A stretch of 47,318 bases of DNA from a virus (taxonomy: Duplodnaviria; Heunggongvirae; Uroviricota; Caudoviricetes): IMG/VR virus record IMGVR_UViG_2675903417_000001, positions 1 to 47,318 of that record. One strand, given 5' to 3'. A program made the position numbers and the translations under genes. Position 1 is the stretch's first letter. The number at the start of each line of letters is the position of its first letter. The notes under the pieces were generated by a model. That model saw nothing but the letters and a program-made list of their open reading frames with translations, had not been told where the DNA came from and ran no database searches. Below, piece after piece: positions 26,104-46,900 of this stretch.

Positions 26104-26979
26104 TCACTCCTGCGCCCATGAAGGCATTTCAGTTTGCCCGTAATCTTTGGCGGCAAAGTTTTCCTGCATAGCTCGCTGCTGCGGCCTCGGTTGAGATTTC
26201 CCCTTTGGAGTCTTGGGCTCAAAAATCCCCTGCCAACCACTGGCGATGCTCTGGTTTATAATTTCTTCAGGTGTATATCCCTTCTCCAGACTTCTGCTTA
26301 GAACGTTGATAGCCTGAGTAATACTTTGCTTAGACTTGATCGACTTACCTATCTCCTTGCGATAGGTAACCCACGACAACCATGTTTCTGCTGATAACCA
26401 ATCAGGCAACTCTGTTTCTAGCGGGTCGAACTTCTGAGAAACTTTTTTGGGGGATATAGGGGGTTTATTAATATTTTCTTTTGTCTTTAAAGAATGTCTT
26501 TTGTGTGTCTCTAACTTCGAGACATTGAGTGTCTCTAATTTGGAGACATTTTTTGTCTCTAACTTCGAGACAAAGTTGCTAACTTGGAGACACTTGCTGA
26601 ATTGCCACGCAGATACCTCACTGTTTACACCGATTTGATTTCCATCCATAAACAGGCAATTCATTGAAATCAGTTCTTTTTTAGCCTTGTTAACATTCTG
26701 CCTTGACAGTCCTGTTAACTGAGCAATTTGCTCATCGGCTATTCGATCTGTTTTCTTATTGAACCCATATGTTTTCCGGACGTAGGCCAGCATAACTTTC
26801 AACTGGCGAGCGGTTAAATCGGCACTTGCGATAGCTTCCAGCAGCTCGTTAGCGAATCTGGTGTAACCATCATCGATATCAGCCACTCTTCGCTCCTGTT
26901 CAACAGGTTCACTCTTCGGCAGGTAAAATACTTCAGCCAGGCTCATTTCCAACCTCCGCATCAAAGCATTGGGCTTCAA
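26104..26979 (-). CDS. O: replication initiator O-like protein (iteron-binding)
   Basis: 291-aa ORF upstream of DnaC-like gene; contains the ori iterons, encoded as 'VSKLETKNVSKLETLNVSKLET'; true start may be a later Met (26961 or 26946). Confidence 0.75.
   Translation of the reverse strand: MKPNALMRRLEMSLAEVFYLPKSEPVEQERRVADIDDGYTRFANELLEAIASADLTARQLKVMLAYVRKTYGFNKKTDRIADEQIAQLTGLSRQNVNKAKKELISMNCLFMDGNQIGVNSEVSAWQFSKCLQVSNFVSKLETKNVSKLETLNVSKLETHKRHSLKTKENINKPPISPKKVSQKFDPLETELPDWLSAETWLSWVTYRKEIGKSIKSKQSITQAINVLSRSLEKGYTPEEIINQSIASGWQGIFEPKTPKGKSQPRPQQRAMQENFAAKDYGQTEMPSWAQE
26506..26592. repeat. replication origin iterons inside O gene
   Basis: Four ~19-bp repeats TGTCTCTAACTTCGAGACA at 26506, 26530, 26554, 26577 (24-bp periodicity), each an inverted repeat (TGTCTC...GAGACA), with AT-rich tract 26461-26500 on the downstream side. 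Confidence 0.7.
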
Positions 26980-27577
26980 GAGACTTAACCATCACCACAC
27001 TGCCATCTGTATTAATAACTATCGATGAGTTATATTTGCTTATCAGTTGCTTCGCGTAATCAATTCCGGCGCGAATAAGGAAATTTTTCACCGCAGGAAG
27101 ATGACCAACTACACTACCCAGACCTTGCTCTATAAGCTCCTCATTAAGATCAAGCTCATTTTCATGGCGAAAAGAAATGAATGAGTCGTAAATTGCGTAT
27201 TCTGCCGTCTCGCCATTTCTTTCAGGGCCAACCAGCGCCCTTATTTCATTTAGAGATTCAGAAAGATCATTATCTTCAAGCTTGAAAAACTCTCGATTAT
27301 CACTAAGCCTCTCTTTTGCAAAGGCTTTATGAATGAGTTTTTCATCTGATGCGGGATTATTTGAATGAAAGGCTGCTATCACCTTAAATGGCTTAGGAAC
27401 GCCAGTAGAGGCTGAAATTTCTTTAGCCCTAACTTCTGGTGAATGCTTAGTCATCCCAATCTTATAAATTCCTGGCATACACTCATTCGAAAGCACATAA
27501 ACAAAGCCATTTGATTTAAAATCATCTGGCACCTTCATGCTCTTCAGAACCTGGAATTTGTCATTTTCGTATGTCAT
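26933..27577 (-). CDS. T5orf172 (GIY-YIG-like) domain protein
   Basis: 214-aa ORF; 'GFVYVLSNECMPGIYKIGMTKHSPEVRAKEISASTGVPKPFKV' fits the T5orf172/DUF1766 pattern; inserted between cII and O. Confidence 0.55.
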   Translation of the reverse strand: MTYENDKFQVLKSMKVPDDFKSNGFVYVLSNECMPGIYKIGMTKHSPEVRAKEISASTGVPKPFKVIAAFHSNNPASDEKLIHKAFAKERLSDNREFFKLEDNDLSESLNEIRALVGPERNGETAEYAIYDSFISFRHENELDLNEELIEQGLGSVVGHLPAVKNFLIRAGIDYAKQLISKYNSSIVINTDGSVVMVKSLEAQCFDAEVGNEPG

Positions 27578-27609
27578 AATGACTCCTGTGGATTGATCCA
27601 GTAATTACC

Positions 27610-27906
27610 TCAGAATTGCATATCAATTTGCTTAAAATCCTCGGTGGCGGCCGGGGATTTTTTCTTTGTGATTTCATCAAGCGCATACTTAAAAGCCCTA
27701 CTAATCGGACTGATGTCTGATGCCATTCCAAAAGCACACAAGACCGAAGCAATAAACCTCCAGTCCGTTCTGCTTATCTTCGATTCATGACAGCCAATCA
27801 TCTTTGCCAGACCGCGCTGGGTAAGCGTTGACAGGTTGATGAGTAAATCAGTTTCAGCGCGATCAATTTCTCGCTGTGTTGGCTTGCTGTAACTTGCTTG
27901 TGTCAT
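27610..27906 (-). CDS. cII: CII-like transcriptional activator
   Basis: 98-aa ORF; HTH plus C-terminal 'KKKSPAATEDFKQIDMQF' resembling lambda CII C-terminus; position downstream of cro. Confidence 0.7.
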   Translation of the reverse strand: MTQASYSKPTQREIDRAETDLLINLSTLTQRGLAKMIGCHESKISRTDWRFIASVLCAFGMASDISPISRAFKYALDEITKKKSPAATEDFKQIDMQF

Positions 27907-27991
27907 TTCTTAATATTTCCAATAGTGAATAGTTAGTTGAAAGGTATGCGTGGAAACGCATATGACCTTAGTTGGTCAGATATCTTGGGAC

Positions 27992-28037
27992 TCGCTTTGT
28001 CAGCGACGTAGGACGAATGTCCATTGTGAAAAGAGCG
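27992..28037 (-). promoter_or_regulatory. nutR-like site (boxA-like CGCTCTTT + boxB hairpin with GACAA loop)
   Basis: Immediately after cro stop on minus strand: CGCTCTTT (28030-28037 rc), then hairpin UCGCU-GACAA-AGCGA (27992-28006 rc). Confidence 0.5.
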
Positions 28038-28044
28038 GTGTTAC

Positions 28045-28272
28045 TTATGCAGCCAGAAGGTTCTTTTTGCTTATTTCAAGCATTTCGCTTGCTTGATATT
28101 TGCCACCAGAAATCTCTTCGATTTTTGATGCGTATTTCGTTTTCCCAAAAAACTCAGTCTTAGGGAGGAAGCCGTTTTTGAGCCACTTATAGACAGCCCT
28201 TTTGCTAACTCCACAAGCCTTCGCAACTTCAGGGATGCCGACACCTTTAATCGGCTCATCAAGATTTTGCAT
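28045..28272 (-). CDS. cro: Cro-like repressor (HTH)
   Basis: ORF 28045-28305; likely start ATG 28272 (AGGA 8 nt upstream); HTH 'IPEVAKACGVSKRAVYKWLKNG'; divergent from cI. Confidence 0.65.
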   Translation of the reverse strand: MQNLDEPIKGVGIPEVAKACGVSKRAVYKWLKNGFLPKTEFFGKTKYASKIEEISGGKYQASEMLEISKKNLLAA

Positions 28273-28350
28273 AGAGATATCCTTTTTCGTACTTTCAGTA
28301 CGCATTATGATTGAACTGAAAGTTTTTGCAAGTGCTTTAGTATCGTACTC
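28273..28350. promoter_or_regulatory. OR operator / pR-pRM region
   Basis: 78-bp divergent intergenic region with palindromes GTACTTTCAGTAC (28289-28301) and GAACTGAAAGTTT (28313-28325), 24 bp centre-to-centre; weaker AGTATCGTACT at 28339-28349. Confidence 0.6.
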
Positions 28351-29058
28351 ATGGTTCAGAATGAAAAAGTGCGCAAAGAATTCGCCCAGCGGCTAGCGCA
28401 AGCCTGTAAAGAAGCTGGTCTTGATGAACATGGTAGGGGAATGGCTATAGCCCGTGCCCTTTCTCTTTCGTCCAAAGGCGTTAGCAAATGGTTTAATGCT
28501 GAGTCTTTACCGCGTCAGGAAAAAATGAATGCGCTTGCGAAATTTCTAAACGTTGATGTTGTTTGGCTTCAGCACGGCACTTCGTTAAATGGAGCGAATG
28601 ATGAAGATACTCTTTCATTTGTTGGCAAATTAAAAAAAGGGTTAGTGCGCGTGGTTGGTGAGGCAATTCTTGGTGTTGATGGTGCCATCGAGATGACCGA
28701 AGAGCGCGATGGGTGGCTCAAAATTTATAGCGATGATCCAGATGCCTTTGGCCTTCGTGTGAAAGGAGACAGCATGTGGCCTAGAATAAAATCAGGAGAA
28801 TATGTACTCATTGAGCCTAACACCAAAGTATTCCCGGGTGATGAGGTGTTTGTCAGAACCGTTGAAGGACACAACATGATTAAGGTTCTTGGCTATGACA
28901 GAGATGGAGAATACCAATTTACAAGCATCAACCAAGACCACAGGCCAATAACGTTGCCTTATCATCAAGTAGCAAAGGTGGAGTATGTGGCTGGTATTCT
29001 GAAGCAATCTCGCCATCTGGATGACATCGAGGCAAGGGAGTGGCTGAAAAGTTCGTGA
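28351..29058 (+). CDS. cI: CI-type prophage repressor (HTH + S24 LexA-like peptidase domain)
   Basis: 235-aa ORF; N-terminal HTH, C-terminal 'GDSMWPRIKSGEYVLIEP' autocleavage motif. Confidence 0.85.
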   Translation: MVQNEKVRKEFAQRLAQACKEAGLDEHGRGMAIARALSLSSKGVSKWFNAESLPRQEKMNALAKFLNVDVVWLQHGTSLNGANDEDTLSFVGKLKKGLVRVVGEAILGVDGAIEMTEERDGWLKIYSDDPDAFGLRVKGDSMWPRIKSGEYVLIEPNTKVFPGDEVFVRTVEGHNMIKVLGYDRDGEYQFTSINQDHRPITLPYHQVAKVEYVAGILKQSRHLDDIEAREWLKSS

Positions 29059-29258
29059 CTTCATCGTCACATAGCTGATAGCCAGTGGCCTGAAGAGACG
29101 TTTGGGTGATGGGCAAGGTGTTCTGGTCGGCGCATAGCTGGTGAAAAAATTATTTAATGCGGTGTATTGGCTGATTGTAACCCCATGTAACATCTTGCCG
29201 TCACCATTTCGGTGGTTAGATTTTTAATAAAAAAAACAAATGTATAGCAAGGTTTTTT

Positions 29259-29738
29259 ATGGATAAAATTAATTACCCACCCCTGTTTGAGCCAGGGTTC
29301 CATGACATGGATGAAGCTGGATTAAAATCGTATTGTGTCGATTGCTTTCCTTCATCATCCAGGCGAGGCATGCTATACTGTAATTTTATACAGCTACTCG
29401 AATCTATTCGAGAATTATCTGCTCAATATGGCTGTTTTACAGAAATATGGGTTGATGGTTCATACACCACGTCTAAACCAGAGCCTGATGATATTGATAT
29501 TTTGTTGGTATGTGACTATAGCAATATAAACTCAATACCTGTCATGCTTCGGGGCCGCGTCGATAATTTGCTTGACCGAAACTACATCAAACAAAACTAC
29601 AAAATTGATGTCCTACTACTCATGAAGAATTTAGATGACCCTAACTATGATTATGAGTACTGGCGTAGCTACTGGCGCGGTTGGTTTGGTTTTGATCGCA
29701 GTGAAAACCCGAAAGGGTTAGTGAGGATTTTTTTATGA
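29259..29738 (+). CDS. minimal nucleotidyltransferase (MNT-fold) protein, accessory
   Basis: 159-aa ORF with AAGG RBS; 'EIWVDGSYTTSKPEPDDIDILLV' matches the GS-x9-DxD nucleotidyltransferase signature; AT-rich; stop overlaps next start (ATGA). Confidence 0.6.
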   Translation: MDKINYPPLFEPGFHDMDEAGLKSYCVDCFPSSSRRGMLYCNFIQLLESIRELSAQYGCFTEIWVDGSYTTSKPEPDDIDILLVCDYSNINSIPVMLRGRVDNLLDRNYIKQNYKIDVLLLMKNLDDPNYDYEYWRSYWRGWFGFDRSENPKGLVRIFL

Positions 29739-30667
29739 ATGATAAATCAATGTTTAAAAATTGCGATAAACGCATTGATTTCATTCAAAAAGAAGTCGAT
29801 GCAATGAAGCAAAACAAAACCAGGTCCTTTGCTGACATGCTTCTTTATCGCTCCATGGATTCTCATCTGAGCGATTTGAAGGCCGAAAAATTAAAGCAAG
29901 ATAGTCGGCACCCACTTATCGATTTTTTTGAGCTGCGGCTGAAAGGCTCTGAGGTTGACTTTGGCTCTATTCCTTTAGAGCTGCTTGGGGCTATTTCAAC
30001 AAATCTTGCAGCGCTAATACAAAGAGCAACACACAAAATTGCCTCAGGCAAGGACTCAAAAAAAGTTCCCTACGACGTGAAAAGCTCCTTAAACCTCAGG
30101 CTGGCTGATTTATCCCCTGGGTCTACAAAATTGGGCGTCACCTTCTCTACAGGAATAGCAGAATTAGTAGAAACAGTACCCAGCAAGGCTGTAAAAGGCA
30201 TATTCGATTTGTTGTTAAGCGATGACGACAACAACTTCATGAATCACGTCGCTGAAATTGGATACAATTCCACTGTAAGCCTTAAGAGAATCGTAGAGGA
30301 ATGCGATAAACACAACTTAACATTTGATGCAAGTTGGACCGGTCCATTTAGTAATGGCACCAAGGTGGCAACTATTGACTCCAATAAAATTAAGTACTTG
30401 GTGAGTAGACTTACATCAACCATTTCATCCCCTCCCATTACTGAAACGGTTACAGGCGAACTGGTCGTTCTATCCAAATATGGGAAGCTGGAGCTTGATG
30501 TTGGTGGTGAACATTTAAAGGCTTCCTATCCGATTGAAATGCTAGATTTAATACAAAAAAAACACAAGGTCGGACAGATTGTTTCTCTTTTAGTGGAGAC
30601 TACTGAGATTCACAATGATCGCATAGGTCTGTACCGTAAAAACCATCTTGTTAAATCGGTTCTTTAA
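29735..30667 (+). CDS. hypothetical 310-aa protein, partner of MNT-like gene
   Basis: ORF with GAGGA RBS, translationally coupled to upstream gene; no motif recognised; AT-rich. Confidence 0.6.
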   Translation: MNDKSMFKNCDKRIDFIQKEVDAMKQNKTRSFADMLLYRSMDSHLSDLKAEKLKQDSRHPLIDFFELRLKGSEVDFGSIPLELLGAISTNLAALIQRATHKIASGKDSKKVPYDVKSSLNLRLADLSPGSTKLGVTFSTGIAELVETVPSKAVKGIFDLLLSDDDNNFMNHVAEIGYNSTVSLKRIVEECDKHNLTFDASWTGPFSNGTKVATIDSNKIKYLVSRLTSTISSPPITETVTGELVVLSKYGKLELDVGGEHLKASYPIEMLDLIQKKHKVGQIVSLLVETTEIHNDRIGLYRKNHLVKSVL

Positions 30668-30673
30668 TATCTC

Positions 30674-30699
30674 ACCCGGCCACCGCGCCGGGTTTTCTT
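30674..30699 (+). terminator. intrinsic terminator after accessory cassette (tIMM-like)
   Basis: Hairpin ACCCGGC-CACCGC-GCCGGGT followed by TTTCTTT, 7 nt after stop. Confidence 0.5.
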
Positions 30700-30872
30700 T
30701 GCCTCTCGATCCCCCACCTAAAAACACATAACCAATTGTATTTATTGATGTAACTCGCTAAACCATGCAGTTCTGATCCCTGCCGCATAACCTTCATCAG
30801 CCACATTTTCAAAAATAAATTTCCTTATATATCAGAATTATACTTCGTATAGTTAATAAATCACCAAAATTC

Positions 30873-30914
30873 GTACCAATGGTTCTTGATAATGTCGAAC
30901 TATTGGTTCATTAT
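30873..30914 (+). promoter_or_regulatory. candidate pL promoter with two OL operators
   Basis: GTACCAATGGTTC (30873-30885) and GAACTATTGGTTC (30897-30909), 24 bp apart, same half-sites and spacing as OR; overlap TTGATA (30886-30891) - 17 bp - CATTAT (30909-30914). Confidence 0.45.
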
Positions 30915-30983
30915 TATCGTCATCAGCAGGACGCACTACTCACCATGGCGGTGAATATACAACGATTCGAATATGAATCTACG

Positions 30984-30998
30984 GCGCTGACAAAGCGC
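30984..30998 (+). promoter_or_regulatory. nutL boxB (P22-type, GACAA loop)
   Basis: GCGCTGACAAAGCGC: 5-bp GC stem with GACAA loop, same loop as nutR hairpin; upstream of N-like gene. Confidence 0.5.
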
Positions 30999-31259
30999 AA
31001 TAACCAAAGTGAACTTTGGGGTGTGGTGAAGCCAGCTAGTCACTGGCAAGTGCTTACCTACTGTTGAGCGGTGAAGCGCTCCCAACGCTAGCAATAGCGT
31101 GGACGAGATGGGGAGCCGCGGGCGATAAGGCCGCCATAACGCGCACGTTGTCGCATGGAAAAATCACTGGGGTGCCGGTTATACCCCTCCGAATGAGACT
31201 CAACAAGCTGGAGCTAGACTACCAGCCACCACACCACCAAAGTTCATCAGGAGGTCTAT

Positions 31260-31643
31260 ATGACACGCAGAACTCAGTTCAAAGGCAATTCACGTTCTCG
31301 TCGTCGTGAGCGTTTAAAGGCAAAGGCATTAGCTAACGGCGTACTGGCCCGCGAAGAAGCAATAAGTTCAGAAGTATTACACCGCCCTACTCTAAGCAGA
31401 GCGCAGATTCAGGCTAAAGGTACTCACGAAACGCCTGAGCGCATAGAAGACGCTAAGCCAATTAAGTTCATGGCACAGGACGTGATCTGGCAACAGAAAG
31501 AATACAGACGCAATCTGGAGCGAGCGGCCATTGTGTACGCGAATGAGTTTGGACATAAGCAACCAGAAACTGGTGTATGTCTTCCAAACGTAGCCATTTA
31601 CGCGGCAGGCTACCGGAAATCAAAACAACTGACAGCGAGGTAA
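31260..31643 (+). CDS. N-like transcription antiterminator (P22 gene 24-like)
   Basis: 127-aa ORF with GGAGG RBS; N-terminal arginine-rich motif 'RSRRRERLKAKA'; C-terminal 'VAIYAAGYRKSKQLTAR' resembles P22 gp24 C-terminus as recalled. Confidence 0.7.
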   Translation: MTRRTQFKGNSRSRRRERLKAKALANGVLAREEAISSEVLHRPTLSRAQIQAKGTHETPERIEDAKPIKFMAQDVIWQQKEYRRNLERAAIVYANEFGHKQPETGVCLPNVAIYAAGYRKSKQLTAR

Positions 31644-31871
31644 GTGGTGAATCAGACATACATTCCGGCGTGCTTGAGAAATCTGCCAAAGCAGAAAGCA
31701 AAGCCCCGAAAGCAAGCCATAAAGGACGCTAAGGCAGAGGTTATTGATCAAGCAATACAATTGCTCAGGGAGGAGTTAAGAAGTGGCAAGCTCGAAGGAA
31801 TGATGATGCCCTATCAGCGCGGATATCTATCGGCGATTAGTAAGTTGGAAGTATTGAAGAGTGAATTATGA
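31644..31871 (+). CDS. hypothetical early protein
   Basis: 75-aa ORF (GTG start directly after N stop). Confidence 0.3.
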   Translation: MVNQTYIPACLRNLPKQKAKPRKQAIKDAKAEVIDQAIQLLREELRSGKLEGMMMPYQRGYLSAISKLEVLKSEL

Positions 31872-31933
31872 ACTATCTGGAATTTCCTGATGGTTCATTG
31901 TTTTGGCAGCAAACCACTTATTTGAGGTGAAAT

Positions 31934-32101
31934 ATGGAAATTGAAATACCAGACAGCTTCGACCCTGAATGGCAAGCAATGATGCTTCGCCAGTTAGCTG
32001 GGAACATTGAGGCACTTAAAAATCGAGAAGATGAACCTGACGAACTACTTATCGACTGCGAGGAAATTATCGAATCTCTTCGCGAATATTCAGGATTTTA
32101 A
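31934..32101 (+). CDS. hypothetical small acidic protein (55 aa)
   Basis: ATG 31934 with GAGGTG RBS; not in ORF track (below cutoff); followed by terminator. Confidence 0.4.
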   Translation: MEIEIPDSFDPEWQAMMLRQLAGNIEALKNREDEPDELLIDCEEIIESLREYSGF

Positions 32102-32126
32102 GGCCGAATAGTCGGCCTTTATTTTT
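32101..32126 (+). terminator. intrinsic terminator
   Basis: Hairpin AGGCCG-AATAGT-CGGCCT followed by TTATTTTT. Confidence 0.45.
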
Positions 32127-32284
32127 GGCATAAACAACAGAATAAACACTGCACTGTGTATTCATTCCAACGAGTGAATACACGGAGCAATGTCGCTCGT
32201 AACTAAACAGGAGCCGACTTGTTCTGATTATTGGAAATCTTCTTTGCCCTCTAATGTGAGGGCGATTTTTTTGATGGAGGATAT

Positions 32285-33253
32285 ATGAGTGAAGTAACAG
32301 ATTTAGTTGTTATTGAAAAAGCAAATGCAATGACTGTATTTCAGTCTGCCGACCAGATTGAAGAAATCCTTCAAAAGGTTGAACGTGAAGTTATGTCCTT
32401 TGTGCCTGATATCACAACGGCAAAGGGCAGAAAGGAGATCGCTTCTCTGGCGTATAAAGTTGCGCAGACGAAAACATATCTCGATGGTCTTGGCAAAGAC
32501 CTTGTTGCTGAACTGAAGGAAATTCCAAAGCTAATTGATGCTAACCGCAAGACAGTGCGTGATCGCCTTGATGAGCTGAAAGCCAAGGCACGCCAGCCTC
32601 TTACTGATTATGAGGAAGAACAGGCGCGGATTAAAGCCGAAGAAGAAGCTAAGGCAGCAGCTGAAGCTCTCGCAAAGCAAATTGAGTCTGACCATGAAAT
32701 AGCTATTTTGATGGATCGCGAATTTGACCGCCAAAGAGAAGAGGCAAGACTCAAAGCGGAGCAGGAAAAGCGAGAGCATGAAGAACGCTTAAAAAGAGAA
32801 GCTGAAGAGAAAGCCAGAGCAGAAGCCGAAGCAAAGGCAAAAGCCGAAATTGAAGCAGCAGCAAGGCGAGAAGCAGAAGCTAAGGCCGCAGCGGAACGTG
32901 CAGAGCGTGAACGCATTGAAGCCGAGCAACGAGCACAGCGCGAAGCAAAAGAGGCAGCAGAACGAGCTGAAAGAGAAAAGCAGGCGGCAATTGAAGCAGA
33001 ACGCCGAAAAGCACAGGAGGAGGCTGAACGAATCCGGCGCGAGGCTAAAGCAAAAGAGCAAGCCAGAATCGCAGAAGAAAAAAGAATCAAGGACGAAGAA
33101 GAGCACAGAGCAAAGGATAAAGCTCGCCGGAAAGAAGTAAATAACAAAATACTTGCTGACCTTATCAAGGTTGGCGCATCAGAAGATGTTGCTAAAAATA
33201 TCATAACAGCCATCGTAAAAGGCGAAGTATTCGCAACAAAAATAACCTACTAA
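32285..33253 (+). CDS. coiled-coil protein with Ala/Glu/Lys/Arg-rich low-complexity core
   Basis: 322-aa ORF with GGAGG RBS; central ~180 aa of 'EAEAKAKAE / REAKEAAERAE' repeats. Confidence 0.6.
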   Translation: MSEVTDLVVIEKANAMTVFQSADQIEEILQKVEREVMSFVPDITTAKGRKEIASLAYKVAQTKTYLDGLGKDLVAELKEIPKLIDANRKTVRDRLDELKAKARQPLTDYEEEQARIKAEEEAKAAAEALAKQIESDHEIAILMDREFDRQREEARLKAEQEKREHEERLKREAEEKARAEAEAKAKAEIEAAARREAEAKAAAERAERERIEAEQRAQREAKEAAERAEREKQAAIEAERRKAQEEAERIRREAKAKEQARIAEEKRIKDEEEHRAKDKARRKEVNNKILADLIKVGASEDVAKNIITAIVKGEVFATKITY

Positions 33254-35892: not shown

Positions 35893-36060
35893 ATGAGAGG
35901 ACTTGCATACAATCCCGGCATTCTTCCGGCAGAAATGATTATTCGCCAACGCGTAAAGCCAATGCCATCGAGAGAGGAGTTGCTTAAGAGAAATTCTTTT
36001 CCATCAGTAAATCAAAACAAATATCTGAATGCGATGTTGCGCAAAGGAGGCAACCAGTGA
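35893..36060 (+). CDS. hypothetical small protein (55 aa)
   Basis: ATG 35893 with GAGGA 7 nt upstream; stop overlaps next start (GTGA). Confidence 0.35.
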
Positions 36061-36542
36061 CTGGACATGCAGCAATCCTCGACATGTGCTGTGGCAGTCG
36101 CATGTTCTGGTTCGATAAGAAGGACGGCCGGGCGATATTTAGCGATATCAGAAAGGAAGAGCACACATTGTGTGATGGACGACGGCTGATAATTAGCCCT
36201 GACCTGATAGCAGATTTTCGTGCATTACCATTTGCAGACGCATCGTTTCCGGTTGTTGTATTCGACCCTCCGCATCTTGAGCGTGTTGGTGATAACGCCT
36301 GGATGGGAAAGAAATATGGACGGCTGAATAAAGATACCTGGCGTGATGATTTGCGGCAGGGATTTAAAGAAGCCTTTCGTGTGTTGCGGCCATACGGCGT
36401 TCTGATTTTTAAATGGAATGAAACGCAAATACCTGTTCGCCAGATATTGGCACTGACCGACAGAAAGCCTGTTATCGGTCAACGAACAGGAAAAGGTGAC
36501 AAGACCCACTGGATTATTTTTATGAAGGAGGGCAACCAGTGA
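36057..36542 (+). CDS. small DNA methyltransferase (DPPH motif; N6-adenine/N4-cytosine class)
   Basis: 161-aa ORF (GTG start, AGGAGG upstream); SAM motif 'ILDMCCGS' and catalytic 'VVFDPPH'. Confidence 0.7.
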
Positions 36543-37799: not shown

Positions 37800-37972
37800 T
37801 TTAAAGACCTTTCTCTACATTTCACTTCATTACATAACCACTTAAAAAACAGTAAGTTATCACCGAATCGGCCTGATTTTCATTTCAGTTAATTTCATGA
37901 CATTACAACCTCGTGATGGTATAAGTGATGGTATTCCCCAGTTCGATATGCAGATACCATCAATTTACCAAA

Positions 37973-39259
37973 ATGAGTACAGATATGGCCATTAATGTGC
38001 TTTCCCCCAAACAGATAGAAAACGCCAAGCCGAAGACCAATGATTACAAACTTACCGATGGAGGGAGTTTGTATCTACTGGTACGAAAGACTGGTGGAAA
38101 ATACTGGCGTATGAATTATCGTTTTGATGGAAAACAAGTGACATTGGCATTAGGGGTCTACCCAGATGTCTCACTTGCAACAGCGCGGAAACGGCGTGAT
38201 GAAGCCAGGCAACTACTAACCGATGGTCGTGATCCTCGCGAAGCAAAGAAACCCAAAAAGGAAGACCCAATTTCCCCCACGTTCGAGAGTGTTGCCAGAG
38301 AGTGGCATAGTGGAACGATGGGGCATCCTGAGTGGAAAGAGATCACCCGTAAAAAAATTCTCCGAGAAATGGAAAACCACCTCTTTCCTGCCATCGGTTC
38401 AAAGCCTATCGATACGCTCAAAACCCGTGACTTGATGCCGATGCTGGTTGAGATGACTGAGAAAGGAATTGGTGCCACAACGAGCCGGGTAAAAACCACT
38501 ATGACGAGCATCTTCCGTTATGCAGTGCAACGTGGAATTGTCGATTACAACCCTGCCCACGATCTAAAAGGTGCAATTACGGCCCCCAAAGTACGACATC
38601 GCCCCGCACTACCTCTCGAACGTTTACCTGAACTGTTAGCGAAAACGAGAAGTTACACGGGAAGACCATTGACTCGCCTAGCAGTTCTCTTTTCCCTGCA
38701 CACTTTTGTGCGATCCAGCGAACTACGACATGCCAGATGGGAGGAGATCGACATTGAAAATGGGCTATGGACGATACCAGGACAACGTGAAGAGATCGCA
38801 GGGGTTAAATTCTCAGATCGGGGTGCAAAGATGGGGGCTGCTCATTATGTCCCGCTATCTAGTCAGGCTATCGGGGTACTGGAGGATATAAGGAAAATCA
38901 GTGGTGAATATCTGCTGGTTTTCCCCGGTGACAGCAACCCATATAAACCGATGAGCGAAAACACAGTTAATAAAGCACTGCGAACGATGGGTTACGACAC
39001 TCAAACTGATGTATGCTTGCATGGGTTCAGGGCGATGGCCTGCTCTGCACTGACCGAATCAGGACTCTGGTCACGCGATGCAGTTGAACGGCAGATGAGT
39101 CACCAAGAAAGAAACGAAGTGCGGGCAGCATATGTGCATCTTGCGCAGCACATGCAGGAACGCCGCAGAATGATGCAATGGTGGTCTAATTATCTGGAAC
39201 TAAATAAGGACGAATTTCATGCTCCTTATGACTTATCAGGTATTAACATTATCAATTAA
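37973..39259 (+). CDS. int: P4-type tyrosine integrase
   Basis: ORF 37925-39259 (GTG); likely start ATG 37973 or 37985. N-terminal 'AKPKTNDYKLTDGGSLYLLVRKTGGKYWRMNYRFDGKQVTLALGVYPDVSLATARKRRDEAR' is typical of the P4 integrase arm-binding domain; C-terminal catalytic region with 'HGFRAM' and 'RAAYVHL'. Confidence 0.85.
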   Translation: MSTDMAINVLSPKQIENAKPKTNDYKLTDGGSLYLLVRKTGGKYWRMNYRFDGKQVTLALGVYPDVSLATARKRRDEARQLLTDGRDPREAKKPKKEDPISPTFESVAREWHSGTMGHPEWKEITRKKILREMENHLFPAIGSKPIDTLKTRDLMPMLVEMTEKGIGATTSRVKTTMTSIFRYAVQRGIVDYNPAHDLKGAITAPKVRHRPALPLERLPELLAKTRSYTGRPLTRLAVLFSLHTFVRSSELRHARWEEIDIENGLWTIPGQREEIAGVKFSDRGAKMGAAHYVPLSSQAIGVLEDIRKISGEYLLVFPGDSNPYKPMSENTVNKALRTMGYDTQTDVCLHGFRAMACSALTESGLWSRDAVERQMSHQERNEVRAAYVHLAQHMQERRRMMQWWSNYLELNKDEFHAPYDLSGINIIN

Positions 39260-39289
39260 ATACTCTTATAATTTAAAACAGAGGTCATA

Positions 39290-40171
39290 ATGCAGCATTC
39301 AACAGAGAATGAAACTATATTCTTAGGAAATCTATGGATTGACAAAAAAATACCACCATTAGAATATTGTTCATTTGAACGCGCTTCAAGACTATTAGAA
39401 TGCGAGATTGATGATTTATTACACCTATACGAAATAGGCGCTTTTAATATCGCATTCAAGGCGGATGGACTTGCAGTTAGATTTAATGTTAATTTCCTCA
39501 ATAAAAATCAGAAAATGGAAATTGACTTAATTCATCCCGTATTAACTAATCAATCACTAGAGATGGAGTTTTCAACAATATGGTATGACCTTAAAGATGA
39601 TTCCTTTGAACATTTTGAAAATGGGCTTCAAATTATAGGATTTGCCTGTGGTATTTGGTACGCCGATGATATGATAAGTGACATAAAAAATGGATTAGCT
39701 ATAGATCCAGATTATGAATTCAGGCTTAAACCGGTAAAAATACGAGATAATGTTTTGATGGCAACGGCCTCATATGAAGGAAATAAGGTCATTGATATTC
39801 CATTTGAAGATCTTCTTATCATGCGAAGAGATTTAGAGTTAATATGGAAATCAGTAAAAACTGGAATTCCTATGCCAAGTTTACTTACGAAAAGAATTTC
39901 ATCTGAACCTAAAATCCCCAAGCGATTAAATAACACTGCTGAGCATCATGCAAAAAATAGGGAGGGGTTATTAAATGCAGCCATATATATTTTAGCAAAA
40001 TACCCAAGCGAATGTCGTGGTGAAAGAAAAGAGATAAGTCCTGAAAAGTGGACTAACGCCATAATTAAACATTTAGGAGAGCTACCTCCAATATTTATCA
40101 CTAATGAACAAGAAATCTTAAGAAAATTACGATTAGCGGTTAATCATGCGGGGTTAAAACAAAAGGGGTAG
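39290..40171 (+). CDS. hypothetical AT-rich cargo protein (293 aa)
   Basis: ORF starting 31 nt after int stop; visibly low GC relative to int and downstream satellite genes; no motif recognised. Confidence 0.6.
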   Translation: MQHSTENETIFLGNLWIDKKIPPLEYCSFERASRLLECEIDDLLHLYEIGAFNIAFKADGLAVRFNVNFLNKNQKMEIDLIHPVLTNQSLEMEFSTIWYDLKDDSFEHFENGLQIIGFACGIWYADDMISDIKNGLAIDPDYEFRLKPVKIRDNVLMATASYEGNKVIDIPFEDLLIMRRDLELIWKSVKTGIPMPSLLTKRISSEPKIPKRLNNTAEHHAKNREGLLNAAIYILAKYPSECRGERKEISPEKWTNAIIKHLGELPPIFITNEQEILRKLRLAVNHAGLKQKG

Positions 40172-40273
40172 ACTGAAACAATCTACAGGTAGAGTTGATT
40201 ACACTACCTTCACAGCATTTTGATATCCCCATAGTATCTGCCGTGTTCATTACATAACACGGCAGGTAATTTC

Positions 40274-40489
40274 ATGACATTAAAAACTTATCCTATCACT
40301 GGACATGCCCGCCCACGAGCTACTGCTGACTTTTTGCAAATAAGTACGGTTACTCTCTGGCGCTGGGAAAAGAACAATCCTGAATTTCCCAAATCTATAC
40401 GCATTTCAAAACGGGTATCTGTTTACGATGCACAAGAAATTAGGCAGTGGGTTAAAGCTCAATCAGCAGGATTGGAGGAAGTAGTGTAA
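40274..40489 (+). CDS. alpA: AlpA-family transcriptional regulator
   Basis: 71-aa ORF; 'DFLQISTVTLWRWEKNNPEFPKSIRISKRVSVYDAQEIRQWV' fits AlpA HTH pattern. Confidence 0.7.
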   Translation: MTLKTYPITGHARPRATADFLQISTVTLWRWEKNNPEFPKSIRISKRVSVYDAQEIRQWVKAQSAGLEEVV

Positions 40490-40538
40490 TGACAATATTA
40501 ACAAAGCTGGGGAGAAAAAAGCCTCCCCAACGTATTAA

Positions 40539-40733
40539 TCAATTCTTTGGTTCTAAACCTCGGCTTTGTAACTCTTTGCGTAGAATGCGCTTGATCCAAG
40601 CCGCTAGCGATTCATCGCCATCCTGCTGTTGTGCTTGTTCCATCAGTTCACGCAGTTCAGGGTCAAGTCGGAACTGGAATGGCGGATTCCCACGTCTTTC
40701 ATTTTTGTGTGTTGACACGTCAATTACACCCAT
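40539..40733 (-). CDS. possible ribbon-helix-helix regulator
   Basis: 64-aa ORF; 'PPFQFRLDPELRELMEQ' resembles an RHH strand-helix; divergent from icd-like gene. Confidence 0.4.
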   Translation of the reverse strand: MGVIDVSTHKNERRGNPPFQFRLDPELRELMEQAQQQDGDESLAAWIKRILRKELQSRGLEPKN

Positions 40734-40765
40734 TGTAATGTATTTATGTGTAATGACACATTACA
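40712..40765. promoter_or_regulatory. palindrome-rich divergent control region
   Basis: Perfect palindrome TTGACACGTCAA (40712-40723) and inverted repeat GTGTAATG-ACA-CATTACAC (40747-40765), plus repeated GTAATG motifs. Confidence 0.35.
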
Positions 40766-40849
40766 CACAGAAAAACAAAATAGCAACGCCCCGGAGTGTT
40801 TGCAGCAGCACCGAGGCGTCTGACCAGCACGTTATATGAGGTAACGAAG

Positions 40850-41026
40850 ATGGCTAAACAGAAGTGTACCTGGTTATTTGCGGCGATCAACCGCAGTCAA
40901 CGTAATGCCCGTCCGGTGATGTTAAGGATCATCGCAGATAACGAACGATCAGCGCGGCGCAGACTTGCCCCGGACTATGTACTGAGCTTTGCCGGGCGCA
41001 TTCCCTGCGGAGGTGAACATGCGTAA
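40850..41026 (+). CDS. Icd-like small protein
   Basis: ORF 40796-41026; likely start ATG 40850 with GAGG 8 nt upstream; 'WLFAAINRSQRNARPVMLRIIADNERSARRRLAPDYVLSFAGRIP' resembles Icd-like proteins of P4-like elements as recalled. Confidence 0.45.
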   Translation: MAKQKCTWLFAAINRSQRNARPVMLRIIADNERSARRRLAPDYVLSFAGRIPCGGEHA

Positions 41027-41378
41027 TTATCCGCACCCCGGCGAACGCTGGCAGCATGAACGTGGCTGGACGGTCACGATTATCCGATTAATAGAAGCCT
41101 CGCCCTCTGTGGCGCTGGTTAATCCTGAATTCAGCTGTGAAGTGCTGATACGTCATGACAGCGACAACCAGCTATCCTCCTGCCCTCTGGCATGGTTTGA
41201 ACAGCGGTATACGCGCCTGTTTGATGTACCGCTCTTTAAGCCTGCACCAGCTCCTGCAGGCGGTAGTGGTTCCGGCCCGCTGACACTGCATCCGTCTGTG
41301 CTATTTATCCGCTGGCGGGAGCGTAGCATATGGCGCTCTGCTGAGCCTGACGACGGTCACTATTCAAAGTTTCTCTGA
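41019..41378 (+). CDS. hypothetical protein
   Basis: ORF 40989-41378; likely start ATG 41019 with GGAGG 5 nt upstream, overlapping upstream stop. Confidence 0.4.
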   Translation: MRNYPHPGERWQHERGWTVTIIRLIEASPSVALVNPEFSCEVLIRHDSDNQLSSCPLAWFEQRYTRLFDVPLFKPAPAPAGGSGSGPLTLHPSVLFIRWRERSIWRSAEPDDGHYSKFL

Positions 41379-41409
41379 CAAAATACCGCTGAAAACGGAG
41401 TAATCCACG

Positions 41410-41694
41410 ATGAATATTTCAAACGGGCACAACGGTGCTCAGGGCCACACTTTGCCTGAAAAACACAATACCGGTGCTTTTGCCTATGGGTTGTCAGAGG
41501 ACAGTTTCGGAAAGCTGACCCGCGCAAGAAATGCCTGCGACATGCTCCAGCTTCTCTTTTCTGAATACCCGTCTCAGGCCGGAGCACTGGACGCTGGCTG
41601 TGCGCATGGTGTCGCCGCGCTGATGGAGTACCTGCTGGCAGATTTGACGGATATTGCACACAGCTGCGCACTGATTGAAGGAGGTGCCAGATGA
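41410..41694 (+). CDS. hypothetical protein
   Basis: 94-aa ORF upstream of primase; overlaps next start. Confidence 0.4.
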   Translation: MNISNGHNGAQGHTLPEKHNTGAFAYGLSEDSFGKLTRARNACDMLQLLFSEYPSQAGALDAGCAHGVAALMEYLLADLTDIAHSCALIEGGAR

Positions 41695-42074
41695 ACCAGC
41701 CGCAGGTTTCCATTTTCCCGGCAGAAATGACCACCGCGCTTTACCGGCGGGCTATTGCTTCAGCATGGCGGCAGAAAATGCTGAACGAAACTGGCAGTGA
41801 TCAGTATGGTCCGCACAGCCTGACGGTGGAGCGTATTGAAATGGCCATTGCGCTGCATATCGAGTGCGTACTGATTAACGAGTACGGCGAAGTGCAGGGC
41901 GCCGCTGCCGCGCTGGCACTGCTGACTGACATGCTGGAGCCGTCACTGCTGACCGCGCCGCCGGTACTGACCGCGCGCGGCTGTGAAGTGATGGCGGAGA
42001 TGTACCGCACGCTTCCGGCGGCCTTTGATGACTTCTGCAGTACCGGTGTGACGTTGTATGAGGGGGAAGTATGA
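41691..42074 (+). CDS. hypothetical protein
   Basis: 127-aa ORF coupled to primase gene (ATGA overlap). Confidence 0.4.
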   Translation: MNQPQVSIFPAEMTTALYRRAIASAWRQKMLNETGSDQYGPHSLTVERIEMAIALHIECVLINEYGEVQGAAAALALLTDMLEPSLLTAPPVLTARGCEVMAEMYRTLPAAFDDFCSTGVTLYEGEV

Positions 42075-44743
42075 CAATACAGACGGTTACGCAGATTTCA
42101 GCCGCCGCACGGGGGAAATGGCCCGTTATTCTGCAGATGCTGCGTATTGATGTACCTGAAAACGGCAGGCACGGTCCCTGCCCGAAATGTGGGGGCAAGG
42201 ATCGTTTTCGCCTTGATGACCTTGACGGGCGCGGGACGTGGATCTGCAGCCAGTGTGGCAATGGTGACGGTCTGGATCTGGTTAAGCTCGTAACCGGTTA
42301 CAGCGTCAGAAAGGCTGCGCAGGAGGTGGCGCAGGTGCTTAATGTGCCGGATGTGCAGGAACTGCCTGTTAAGCCTGCCAGACAAAAAGCCCCTAAACGC
42401 GACATGGGTCTTACCGTGGCGGCGCTGATGAAAGAGAGCCACACGGGAGAAAGCGCCTATCTGACAGGAAAAGGGTTCGCCGGATACCCGGCCTCTCTGA
42501 CCGGAAGCGTGCAGCATATCAGCGGTAAGGATTTTCCTGCCGGTTCCCTGCTGTTACCACTCACGACCAACACCGGAGCCGTGACCGGTGCACAGCTTAT
42601 CGCCCCGACGGGTGAAAAAAGCATACTGCCCGGCAGCACGATGAAAGGCGCGTTTGTGTCGCTCAGCCCGTTACCGTCTGAACCACCGGTACAGGTGGTG
42701 ATTACCGAAGGTTACGCTACGGCGCTGACGGTAAGCCAGCTCACTGCCGGATGCGTAGTGGCTGCCATATCTGCGGGCAACCTGCCCAATGTGGCGCAGT
42801 CGCTGCGGGCACGCTGGCCTGAGGTAAAAATTATCATCGCCGGTGATAACGATTTTCAGGACGGGGGTGAGAATCCCGGCAGAGCCTTTGCTGAACGGGC
42901 GGCAAAAGCTGTTGGCGGCTGGATGACGCTGCCACCAGGAGAGATTAAGGCTGACTGGAATGACTTTCATCGGGAGCACGGTATTACCCGTGCCCGTGAA
43001 GCCTTTCGCAACGGTCTGGTACTGTGCGGGGAAGGCCGCACGCAACTGCCGCACGGGTTCCGTCTTACCCAGGAATATCTCTGGTATGAAAAGCAGGTAC
43101 AGCGCAACGGTGAGACGGAGATCCAGAACGTCAAAATATGCAGCCCGCTGCGCGTGACGGCAATCACCTGCGATGCCGATGGCGGTAACTTCGGACGACT
43201 GCTGGAATGGGAAGATACGTGGGGTGAGTGTCGCCGCTGGGCGATGCCGATGGAAATGCTGAGCGGCAGTGGTGAGGAACTGCGCCGGGTACTGCTGGTT
43301 AACGGGCTGTCTTATATCAGCACCACCGGTGAGGCACGCGCACGCCTGATGGAATATATCTCACTGTGTAAACCGGAACGCCGCGTGACCTGCGTCAGTC
43401 GTACTGGCTGGCATGGTCAGGTTTACGTCCTGCAGGATGAGGTCAGCGGTGAAGGTGCAGAGGGTGTCATTCTCCAGACCACTTCCGTGCAGGGGCGTGA
43501 TTTCCGCGTGTCGGGCACAACAGAGGAATGGCGGGAGCATGTATCCCGCTACTGTACCGGCAACTCCCGCGTGGCATTTGCTGTCAGCCTGGCCTTTGCT
43601 GCACCACTGTTACGGCTGGTTGGTATGGACGGCGGCGGCTACCACCTCAAAGGGGAATCGACAGACGGTAAGACCACCACCATGAAAGCGGCAACCTCCG
43701 TCTGCGGCGGGCCTGACTACTGGCAGACATGGCGGGCCACCGGCAACGCGCTGGAGGGATGCGCCAGCCGCCGCAACGATGCTGCCATGATGCTTGATGA
43801 GATCCGGGAAGTTGACGGACGCGAGGCAGGCAATATCGCCTACATGCTGGCAAACGGTCAGGGCAAGGGCCGTGCCGGTACGGACGGTGAGCTGCGTACC
43901 CGTAAGCAGTGGCGCCTGTTGTTCTTTTCAACTGGCGAGTTGTCTCTGACCGAACATGCGGCAAAGGCCGGTGAGCGTACTTTTGCCGGGATGGAAGTCA
44001 GGATGATCCAGATCCCCAGCGATTCCGGGAAGTTTGGCGTTTTTGAGGAGCTGCACGGCTTCGACAGCGGCAAGGCTCTGGCAGAGCATCTTGAATGGGC
44101 CACGTCCTGCTACTACGGTTCGCCGTTCCGGGAGTGGCTGAAAGCACTGACCGCTGATCTTAACGGACTAACGGCACAGGCAAAATCGCTGATGAAGGAA
44201 TATGCTGCCGCCCTGACTCCTAAAGATGCAGGCAATCAGGTGGGCCGGGCTGTGAACCGCTTTGCACTGGTGGCGATGGCAGGTGAACTGGCAACCCGTC
44301 TGGGTATCACCGGCTGGCCTGAGGGTGAAGCACTGCGGGCAACCCGCGTCTGCCTGAACGCATGGCTGAAAGATCGCGGGCACACCGCCAATCAGGAAGA
44401 TATCGCCGCACTGGAGCAGGTTCGCAGTTTCTTTACCGCGAATCAGTACAGCCGCTTTGCAGACTGGTATGACGAGCGCAACCGCCCCGGCAATATGGTG
44501 GGCTGGCGCAGGGTGGAGAAAGGCAGTACCGCGCAGGGCACGGAAGCTGTCACTACGTTCTATGTCATGCCGTCCGGCTGGAAAGAAATCTGCAGGGGAT
44601 TTGACCCGCGCAAGGTGGCGCGTCTGTGCGTAGATCGTGGATACCTGCTGCCCTCCACTGATGGCAAACTCCAGACAACCATTCGCCCGCCAGAGATGAA
44701 TCCCCGCAGGCTCTATGTCTTCAACAGCGAGGTGCCGGGTTAA
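42071..44743 (+). CDS. primase/helicase-type replication protein (zinc-ribbon + TOPRIM + C-terminal NTPase; P4 alpha-like)
   Basis: 890-aa ORF; zinc ribbon 'CPKCGGKDRFRLDDLDGRGTWICSQCG', TOPRIM 'VVITEGYATALTV...IIAGDND', Walker A-like 'GESTDGKTT'. Confidence 0.85.
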   Translation: MTIQTVTQISAAARGKWPVILQMLRIDVPENGRHGPCPKCGGKDRFRLDDLDGRGTWICSQCGNGDGLDLVKLVTGYSVRKAAQEVAQVLNVPDVQELPVKPARQKAPKRDMGLTVAALMKESHTGESAYLTGKGFAGYPASLTGSVQHISGKDFPAGSLLLPLTTNTGAVTGAQLIAPTGEKSILPGSTMKGAFVSLSPLPSEPPVQVVITEGYATALTVSQLTAGCVVAAISAGNLPNVAQSLRARWPEVKIIIAGDNDFQDGGENPGRAFAERAAKAVGGWMTLPPGEIKADWNDFHREHGITRAREAFRNGLVLCGEGRTQLPHGFRLTQEYLWYEKQVQRNGETEIQNVKICSPLRVTAITCDADGGNFGRLLEWEDTWGECRRWAMPMEMLSGSGEELRRVLLVNGLSYISTTGEARARLMEYISLCKPERRVTCVSRTGWHGQVYVLQDEVSGEGAEGVILQTTSVQGRDFRVSGTTEEWREHVSRYCTGNSRVAFAVSLAFAAPLLRLVGMDGGGYHLKGESTDGKTTTMKAATSVCGGPDYWQTWRATGNALEGCASRRNDAAMMLDEIREVDGREAGNIAYMLANGQGKGRAGTDGELRTRKQWRLLFFSTGELSLTEHAAKAGERTFAGMEVRMIQIPSDSGKFGVFEELHGFDSGKALAEHLEWATSCYYGSPFREWLKALTADLNGLTAQAKSLMKEYAAALTPKDAGNQVGRAVNRFALVAMAGELATRLGITGWPEGEALRATRVCLNAWLKDRGHTANQEDIAALEQVRSFFTANQYSRFADWYDERNRPGNMVGWRRVEKGSTAQGTEAVTTFYVMPSGWKEICRGFDPRKVARLCVDRGYLLPSTDGKLQTTIRPPEMNPRRLYVFNSEVPG

Positions 44744-44777
44744 GGCTTTGCGTGAGTCTTATTTATTAAGGGTAACA

Positions 44778-44965
44778 GGTGAAACAGGTGGAACAACCGT
44801 ATTTTACAGGGCTGAACCTGATCCACCTTCTGAAATAGTGAGGTGGAACAGATGTAACGCCAGCCAATCCGCTGTTCCACCTTGTTACCCGCGATGTTCC
44901 ACCGGTGCAGTGTATATAAATGCCTTATAAAACAAAGCAGTAACACATGTTTCACCTGTTCCACC
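44778..44965. repeat. iteron cluster (TGTT[C/T]CACC x7, both orientations); candidate satellite ori
   Basis: GGTGAAACA 44778, GGTGGAACA 44787 and 44842, TGTTCCACC 44873, 44895 and 44957, TGTTTCACC 44948; downstream of primase; resembles P4 type I iterons (TGTTCACC) as recalled. Confidence 0.55.
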
Positions 44966-45053
44966 GCATCAGGGACATAAAGCAGACTGAAACAGAGGGT
45001 ATTTTTATCTGGCTGGCTTTCATAGCCACGTCTGAATAACCGCAAGCGCCCGT

Positions 45054-45109
45054 TGTGCCAGCCACCACACACTGAGCACCGATAGTGTGCTTGTGTCAGC
45101 CACGACACA
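45054..45109 (+). promoter_or_regulatory. candidate Ogr/Delta-dependent late promoter upstream of sid
   Basis: Two TGT-N12-ACA dyads (45054-45071 and 45092-45109) 35-90 bp upstream of the sid ATG. Confidence 0.45.
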
Positions 45110-45143
45110 ATTGACGTAACGAACCAACCCGACAGGAGAAGTC

Positions 45144-46435: not shown

Positions 46436-46440
46436 TATTA

Positions 46441-46713: not shown

Positions 46714-46733
46714 TTAGAAAAAAACGCCCACGT

Positions 46734-46760
46734 AATCCCGGTCGAGTACCGGGATTTTTA
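46734..46760 (+). terminator. intrinsic terminator after delta
   Basis: Hairpin AATCCCGGT-CGAGT-ACCGGGATT followed by TTTT. Confidence 0.5.
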
Positions 46761-46787
46761 ACACCTTTTCCCTGGCTGGCCTGAGAG

Positions 46788-46900
46788 CGCATGAGTGCAT
46801 GTCTATAGCGCATGAAAACGCATGAACCTTATGCACCATTTTTGACGAGAAAGCCCTTGTGTGGTGGCTTCTGAGACGATTTATGAGGTGCATGAAAACC
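46788..46900. repeat. cluster of GCATGA(A) direct repeats
   Basis: GCGCATGAG, TGCATG, GCGCATGAAAAC, GCATGAACC, ATGCACC and GTGCATGAAAACC within ~115 bp of non-coding DNA. Confidence 0.3.

Follow-up and report, generated by a model that had tools for sequence, protein, structure and literature searches.

The window analysed here is the whole stretch of 47,318 nucleotides (nt) filed as IMG/VR virus record IMGVR_UViG_2675903417_000001 (Caudoviricetes). It displays, between a cI-like repressor gene and an N-like gene, a cassette of two adjacent open reading frames (ORFs), termed gene A and gene B. The amino acid (aa) sequence of gene A matches the Pfam family DUF6932 (PF22014) at 1.7e-24 and the PADLOC model PDC-M63A (PDLC04744) at 1.8e-41, where residues 1–158 align with profile positions 1–148 of 152. 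Gene B matches PDC-M63B (PDLC04749) at 7.5e-45, with residues 23–304 aligned to profile positions 20–300 of 309, and five further M63B models match it as well. The adjacency of the genes, their order and their common strand are also those of PDC-M63. On sequence similarity the window pair is a member of the PDC-M63 family, i.e. it is already known and not novel.

The sequence-only reading of this DNA, which was made from the letters and a list of ORFs, could match the pair to nothing described. This did not hold, as both proteins match PDC-M63 and identical genes are present in the Escherichia phage mEpX1. That reading had also asked whether both genes would show confident homology to a characterised system; what was found is the candidate PDC-M63 only. 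PADLOC returned for the pair only PDC-M63, a weak match to PDC-M32A and a noise-level match to DrmC, and in NCBIfam neither protein was matched.

PDC systems are a set of 145 untested candidates embedded in BREX, DISARM or type I restriction-modification (RM) operons, and PDC-M63 was published as a 'guilt-by-embedding' prediction without an assigned mechanism (Payne et al., bioRxiv 10.1101/2024.01.29.577857). The sole paper found that names PDC-M63 calls it never verified (PMC12409345). In the literature searched, no paper mentions DUF6932 or the RefSeq accessions WP_016063144 and WP_016063143, and the DefensePredictor supplements do not contain them. Added here to the catalogue entry are the fold assignments, the prophage slot and a variant linked to the type I restriction protein HsdR.

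The mEpX1 locus displays 99.6–99.8% DNA identity over window positions 29083–30703. Both of its proteins (XSB41150.1 and XSB41149.1, corresponding to WP_016063144 and WP_016063143) are 100% identical by tblastn to those of the window. As in the window, the pair is found between cI and N, and it is annotated as hypothetical. However the cI and N genes of mEpX1 are different ones. Since the flanking immunity genes differ and the cassette is the same, the cassette has moved as a module between immunity types.

Anatomy and co-inheritance of the cassette

The sequence-only reading had placed the cassette between cI and a terminator, with an ATGA overlap between the two genes, and the ORFs, the overlap and the terminator hairpin are all found in those places (Table 1). 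The hairpin is GC-rich, has a 7-bp stem, lies 6 bases past the stop codon of gene B and is followed by UUUUCUUU. Its fold energy is −13.7 kcal/mol (z = −2.56 against shuffled sequences). The interval from B to N is 592 bp and has no assigned gene, and an Rfam scan of window positions 27500–32500 gave no match. The guanine-plus-cytosine (GC) content of the cassette is 0.403 (cI 0.455, N 0.487, whole window 0.477), which is in the lowest 2.4% of windows of the same size. The AT-richness that had been ascribed to the cassette relative to cI and N is thus real though modest.

The pair had further been credited with its own AT-rich upstream region and good ribosome-binding sites. Purine runs resembling such sites are present, i.e. 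GTGAGGA at 7 nt 5′ of the start codon of B and a weaker AAGG before that of A, and the spacer between cI and A is AT-rich. However no sigma-70-like promoter was found in this 200-bp spacer, where the scan did not rise above shuffled expectation, and a promoter of the cassette's own is unsupported. Homologous cassettes start only 46–82 bp past cI. Because of this short distance and the lack of a promoter match in the spacer, read-through of the cI transcript is a simpler reading of how A and B are made than a promoter of their own.

A and B are real genes and not chance ORFs, since each protein has conserved relatives in Enterobacterales, Bacteroidota, Firmicutes and candidate phyla. When viral genomes (IMG/VR) were searched from B, A was found directly upstream in 55/55 loci. 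For 54 of these, i.e. those where A was paired automatically, the overlap was measured and is 4 bp; at the 55th (L125) the B ORF is extended upstream, and tblastn puts A at 5531–6001 with the annotated start of B at 6001. When genomes were searched from A, a B homologue was found immediately downstream on the same strand in 61 of 72 species-representative loci, which come from Bacteroidota, Proteobacteria, Firmicutes, Nitrospirae, Planctomycetota, Chloroflexi, Verrucomicrobia and a Parcubacteria genome. Contig ends cut several of the other 11 loci. The distant B partners are homologous by hhalign, with probabilities of 98.3% and 99.5%. A and B form a near-obligate, co-inherited and translationally coupled two-gene module, and the question raised by the sequence-only reading, whether the pair is conserved together elsewhere, is answered by these counts. 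There are loci where B is split and A is intact (L025, L029, L045 and L060), and others where A is found alone without B (L068, L073 and L083).

A DUF6932 homologue is also present in Streptococcus phage MissE1 (L014, OL774874) at positions 3929–4405. It shows 32% identity and has intact catalytic residues. It is located in the lysogeny module beside a RelE-family toxin gene and an ImmA gene, and the ORF that follows it encodes 55 aa and is not a B-type partner.

Predicted folds of the two proteins

The signature GSYTTSKPEPDDID of gene A, i.e. G67-S68, nine residues and D78-x-D80, had been taken as that of a minimal nucleotidyltransferase of the MNT type, and the homologues and structural matches bear this out. 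G67, S68, D78 and D80 are kept in 82/82 unique homologues from many phyla. The C-terminal motif RSYWRGWFGF is strongly conserved too: W139 is present in 92% of the homologues, and F143 is found as F or Y in 79 of the 82. Some homologues carry precomputed PF01909 matches. The AlphaFold2 (AF2) model of gene A has a predicted local distance difference test (pLDDT) score of 96.4. It displays the core of the Pol-beta superfamily, which is alpha-beta-alpha-beta-alpha-beta with three catalytic carboxylates on strands; D78, D80 and D117 are located on strands 79–86 and 116–123 of the model.

The top solved structures in the Foldseek search are the Sulfolobus nucleotidyltransferase 2rff, the MNT antitoxins 7ae2_B, 7ae9, 8xeo_B and 7bxo, CdnC, and Pol beta. 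These matches are weak but consistent: the MNT chains of HEPN-MNT pairs give template modelling (TM) scores of 0.29–0.39 with E-values of at least 2.5e-3, and CdnC gives an E-value of 0.026. There are also weak matches to DNA_pol_B_palm (Pfam) and to Pol beta, and the PDB profile search otherwise returned designed proteins. Judged from residue conservation and the model, gene A is a minimal Pol-beta-type nucleotidyltransferase that is predicted to be catalytically intact. An identity of the pair with CBASS was considered and rejected; no SMODS or CBASS match was obtained in Pfam or PADLOC, and a SAVED-related PDB match of B is not significant (E = 0.84).

Gene B matches PHROG 6603. No transmembrane segment is predicted in its product, where the maximum 19-residue hydropathy is 1.38, and none is predicted in A. 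At 50% identity the B family falls into 269 clusters among 1.84 billion representatives. The matches listed are nearly all 300–330 aa long, with a few short fragments and no longer fusions among them. No Pfam family rises above noise in 73 diverse B members, and PDB sequence-profile searches with gene B gave noise only, i.e. no sequence relative was found. The AF2 model of gene B (pLDDT 80) displays a helical hairpin, an alpha/beta middle region and a C-terminal beta1-3/alpha/beta4-5 unit, which is an oligonucleotide/oligosaccharide-binding (OB) fold. G129-S130 are the only invariant positions in the 73 members and sit in a low-confidence loop of the middle region; conservation elsewhere falls mostly on glycines, prolines and tryptophans.

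A Foldseek search with the N-terminal and middle regions of B gave nothing convincing, only alpha/beta matches of the M16-peptidase and cytochrome bc1 core type at high root-mean-square deviation. Residues 62–146 weakly match the N-terminus of the PADLOC candidate PDC-M32A (3.4e-5). The motifs ELRLxG..GSxPL and LDLRLAG..GSTRL in the middle region suggest an internal repeat or a domain common to candidate systems. A profile of residues 58–150, searched against a 5.8-billion-protein set for other architectures such as that of PDC-M32A, retrieved seven fragments only.

The pair resembles HEPN-MNT toxin-antitoxin pairs (PDB 7ae2, 7bxo) in that a small GSx9DxD nucleotidyltransferase comes first and is followed by an overlapping partner. 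The fold of A is MNT-like, and the RSMDSH sequence (R-x4-H) of B, which had been noted as possibly coincidental, would be a hint of HEPN. It turns out to be coincidental: R40 is replaced by D or N and H45 by Y in close homologues, and neither is conserved in the family. One of the 73 B members shows a HEPN Pfam match, and this is at noise level (E = 0.005). Furthermore the B model is alpha/beta plus OB with no HEPN fold, so that B is not a HEPN protein. Conservation and fold together refute a HEPN-MNT identity of the pair, and we give this explanation next to no credence.

The OB fold of B resembles tRNA anticodon-binding domains, e.g. that of LysRS. This resemblance would fit a module in which A acts as a MenT/AbiEii-like toxin that adds nucleotides to tRNA 3′ ends, with B as the antitoxin. 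Nucleotidyltransferase toxins that extend the tRNA acceptor stem are established (PMC7450476, PMC10435456); like A they belong to the Pol-beta superfamily and to two-gene modules, and their 3′-end tailing can arrest growth. However those toxins are DUF1814 proteins of ~280–300 aa, whereas A is outside DUF1814 and is half their size. Pfam gives DUF6932 only and PADLOC gives no AbiE match, and an AbiE/MenT identity was rejected on these grounds. The gene order also differs, as the antitoxin is upstream in those modules and the nucleotidyltransferase, i.e. the presumed toxin, is upstream here. Loci with a split or missing B still have an intact A, which should not be tolerated if A were an unneutralised toxin. 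This explanation is very unlikely.

The loci with a split B and intact A, together with those where A is solo, are the pattern expected if it is B that is harmful. In such a module, which would be of the addiction or type VII-like toxin-antitoxin kind, B would be the effector that inhibits growth, e.g. by sequestration of single-stranded DNA (ssDNA) or tRNA through its OB fold, and A would nucleotidylate B to silence it. The module would mainly serve to maintain the prophage, abortive infection being a possible side effect, and it has a precedent in MNT acting on HEPN. The MNT antitoxins of HEPN-MNT pairs are the nearest solved folds of A, the nucleotidyltransferase-first order with an overlapping partner is as in those pairs, and the invariant G129-S130 loop of B could be the site of modification. 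However neither a toxin domain nor conserved catalytic residues can be recognised in B. B is also twice as long as A and would be mutated more often in any case, and several of the loci with a split B were recovered from metagenome bins, in which a frameshift may stem from an error of assembly. An addiction module of this kind is considered unlikely.

A possible functional analogy is found in Hailong (Tan et al. 2025, as summarised in PMC13276650), which combines the nucleotidyltransferase HalB with the membrane ion channel HalA, the partner being one that binds ssDNA. Both are two-gene systems, and the likeness would lie in a nucleotidyltransferase that works with an OB-fold protein. A difference is that HalA forms an ion channel in the membrane and B is a soluble protein. 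A Hailong identity was rejected from the side of the partner, as no transmembrane segment is predicted in B, which is thus not a HalA-type channel. Compared by chain name, no HalB-named chain is listed at E-values up to 1 in the PDB profile search of A and none is in its top 50 Foldseek matches.

The rexAB slot and other settings of the pair

In E. coli (two alleles), in Providencia and in Erwinia phage vB_EhrS_59 the pair is always located 3′ of an S24 repressor gene and 5′ of N or of recombination genes. A cI-like gene is found 56–676 bp upstream in at least 45 of the 55 viral loci, and several immunity types are represented among the repressors. In L088, an E. coli prophage with a related backbone, the slot between cI and N holds rexA-rexB, and the same hairpin follows rexB. 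This agrees with the placement of the cassette, in the sequence-only reading, in a lysogen-expressed slot between cI and the terminator. The L088 backbone displays ~96% DNA identity on the shared flanks and has a different cro/operator region and cI N-terminal region. In a further related-backbone E. coli prophage (L089) the slot is filled by IS2 and two small hypothetical genes (122 and 118 aa).

The shared flank ends at window position 29140 in the case of L088 and at 29110 in that of L089, and resumes at 30674, which is the start of the terminator hairpin. The stretches common to the window and the rexAB prophage are 28631–29140 and 30674–30748. The mEpX1-type cassette, which spans 29083–30703, overlaps both junctions, thus these may be the short homologies through which cassettes are exchanged. 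As the sequence comparisons indicate, the slot is a site where cargo is exchanged between conserved flanks.

The lambda rexA-rexB pair is comparable to A and B in slot, orientation, start at the cI side, terminator hairpin and junctions, and both are two-gene, lysogen-expressed cargo. However there is no sequence similarity between them. RexAB identity was rejected, since PADLOC shows no RexA or RexB homology. RexB is a membrane protein, whereas B lacks a transmembrane segment.

In five Bacteroidota loci (L063, L067, L071, L072 and L081) the DUF6932 gene is followed not by B but by a gene for an HsdR-like protein of ~855 aa, which displays ResIII, Helicase_C and EcoEI_R_C domains and a PD-(D/E)xK motif. 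The upstream gene in the three loci that were scanned (L063, L071 and L081) encodes a large N6 DNA methylase of ~1050–1100 aa, and a fused type I specificity domain was detected in that of L071 and L081. The first ~58 residues of the HsdR-like proteins match the hairpin of B, N-terminus to N-terminus, with E-values of 4.5e-7 to 2e-3 in hidden Markov model (HMM) searches. By hhalign, a phylum-wide B profile aligns with the HsdR-like N-termini over 77 columns (92.7% probability, E = 4.3e-7). Homology between the hairpins of B and of the HsdR-like proteins is put at moderate strength on these profile comparisons, because the phylum-wide profile alone supports it and an enterobacterial one is silent.

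Two Chitinispirillia loci (L047 and L052) have mini-partners of 133–135 aa, which are reduced to the hairpin and a portion of the OB fold. As far as the sequences indicate, the constant element beside the nucleotidyltransferase is the hairpin, and the variable element is a module that would bind or process nucleic acid. The hairpin may therefore be the part that docks A, and A may act on, or along with, a nucleic acid that the partner holds. This arrangement suggests that the nucleotidyltransferase is an accessory enzyme delivered to partners that handle nucleic acid.

At one locus in a Bacteroidota-type genome (L008, positions 2904–4829) the pair is directly downstream of a gene for a NACHT STAND NTPase with an SNaCT5 C-terminal domain. 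NACHT STAND proteins are often linked to defence.

Table 1. Positions in the window of the cassette, its parts and its flanking features
Feature	Position	Strand	Basis
cI-like S24 (LexA-family) prophage repressor	28351–29058	+	ORF; LexA-family/S24 peptidase annotation in related prophages
Left junction	29083–29140	.	local blastn; lambda, 434 and HK544 also match
Spacer, 200 bp, GC 0.415, weak hairpin 29197–29216	29059–29258	+	hairpin −7.2 kcal/mol, z = −1.5
Gene A, DUF6932 / PDC-M63A, 159 aa	29259–29738	+	Pfam, PADLOC, AF2, Foldseek
Gene A catalytic motif G67-S68-x9-D78-x-D80	29457–29498	+	82/82 unique homologues
Gene A third carboxylate D117	29607–29609	+	D or E in 71/82 homologues
Gene A C-terminal motif RSYWRGWFGF, aromatic and basic	29664–29693	+	homologue conservation
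ATGA stop/start overlap of A and B	29735–29738	+	translational coupling; 54/55 viral loci measured
Gene B, PDC-M63B, 310 aa, soluble	29735–30667	+	PADLOC, PHROG 6603, AF2
B residues 1–58, N-terminal helical hairpin (helices 10–25, 32–57)	29735–29908	+	AF2 secondary structure; HMM, hhalign
B residues 59–231, alpha/beta middle region	29909–30427	+	AF2; motifs ELRLxG..GSxPL, LDLRLAG..GSTRL
B residues 232–310, C-terminal OB fold (beta1-3, alpha, beta4-5)	30428–30664	+	
Intrinsic terminator hairpin, tIMM-like; U-run to ~30701	30674–30693	+	fold energy
Right junction	30674–30748	.	kept in related-backbone prophages with rexAB or other cargo
N-like gene	31260–31643	+	ORF

Several other loci of the window were noted. 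Between cII and the replication genes there is a 214-aa T5orf172/MUG113 (GIY-YIG-like) ORF at positions 26933–27577 on the minus strand, which matches PDC-S57, a single-gene candidate of PADLOC, at 6.4e-29 and PD-Lambda-1, in the C-terminal part of the latter, at 8e-12. This gene is a second possible defence cargo in the same prophage. A DNA methyltransferase of 161 aa is encoded in the early-left region at positions 36057–36542 on the plus strand (PADLOC MTase_II 4.9e-74, orphan methyltransferase 1.3e-50). Positions 37925–47318 display an integrase gene (37925–39259) followed by P4-like satellite genes, which encode a primase with Zn-ribbon, Toprim and DUF927 domains (42071–44743) and a Psu-like protein (45144–45887). 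The window thus appears to represent a prophage beside a satellite. Directly 3′ of the satellite integrase gene is an ORF of 293 aa (39290–40171, plus strand) in the spot of lowest GC of the window (0.34). It has no Pfam or PADLOC match and may be cargo in a satellite hotspot.

Possible function of the pair

Defence is a reasonable but unproven reading of the pair. The favoured reading, put forward tentatively on the sequences and models, is that A and B may make up a lysogen-expressed anti-phage module in which B binds single-stranded nucleic acid and presents either the substrate or itself to A. The window copy of PDC-M63 would be exchangeable cargo in the slot between cI and tIMM of a lambdoid E. 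coli prophage. Both proteins would be produced in the lysogen from the cI read-through transcript, which would terminate at the hairpin at 30674–30693, and they may form a complex through the N-terminal hairpin of B. The OB fold of B would bind a single-stranded nucleic acid, which may be a phage replication or recombination intermediate or the 3′ end of an RNA or tRNA. A would then transfer nucleotides onto the nucleic-acid substrate, or onto B itself, e.g. at the G129-S130 loop, and exclusion or abortive infection of the superinfecting phage would be the outcome. Shown are the folds, the conservation and the genomic settings; the A-B complex, its substrate and its trigger are inferred.

Several observations weigh against this anti-phage reading. 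In the one experimental test found, deletion of PDC-M63AB in its native host E. coli NILS69 left infection by 10 virulent dsDNA phages unchanged (PMC12409345). The OB fold is a generic binding fold, and a catalytic site is not apparent among the conserved residues of B, which are mostly glycines or structural. With regard to the hairpin, hhalign of the enterobacterial B profile against the HsdR-like N-termini gives no signal, and the region resembles a coiled coil, a feature that can push scores up. Outside Enterobacterales the genes directly beside the pair are for the most part housekeeping genes or a mixture from mobile elements, and defence matches are only scattered; the 148 flanking proteins there are heterogeneous and display no clear defence-island signal.

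The negative native-host knockout and these mixed, largely non-defence neighbourhoods outside prophages, e.g. imuB/dnaE2 beside the pair in L010, are what would be expected of an accessory function other than defence. The pair may then act in nucleic-acid repair or tailing, in control of induction or as a restriction helper, and the slot would tolerate any cargo, as the L089 genes of unknown function in the same slot illustrate. However embedding in known defence operons is the basis of the PDC call, and the DUF6932 gene is found independently in type I RM loci here. The slot of a related-backbone prophage holds rexAB. In complete E. coli genomes allele 1 is present in 18/5426 and allele 2 in 98/5426 (together ~2%), all chromosomal; the two alleles are 55–61% identical and are found in mobile-element settings where examined, and such a sporadic two-allele spread is typical of defence cargo. 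A non-defence function is regarded as rather doubtful.

The anti-phage reading can be extended to the HsdR-linked loci. The family may represent a new anti-phage class in which DUF6932 docks on a portable N-terminal hairpin of interchangeable partners, i.e. the OB-fold protein B in prophages or a type I HsdR in Bacteroidota, and carries out template-independent nucleotidylation of a nucleic-acid end, of the phage or of the host, or of the partner. To our knowledge, no characterised defence system uses template-independent nucleotidylation in such a configuration. On the present comparisons and models this wider proposal is improbable.

The pair is a catalogued, unvalidated candidate and not a discovery, and its interest lies in its testability in the rexAB slot and in the HsdR link. 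A test would be unusually easy, as the identical cassette is present in the cultivable lambdoid phage mEpX1, which is grown on E. coli K-12. Should PDC-M63 prove to be a genuine defence system, the classic rexAB slot of lambda would gain an exclusion module based on a nucleotidyltransferase, and a minimal Pol-beta-type enzyme would be linked to type I restriction.

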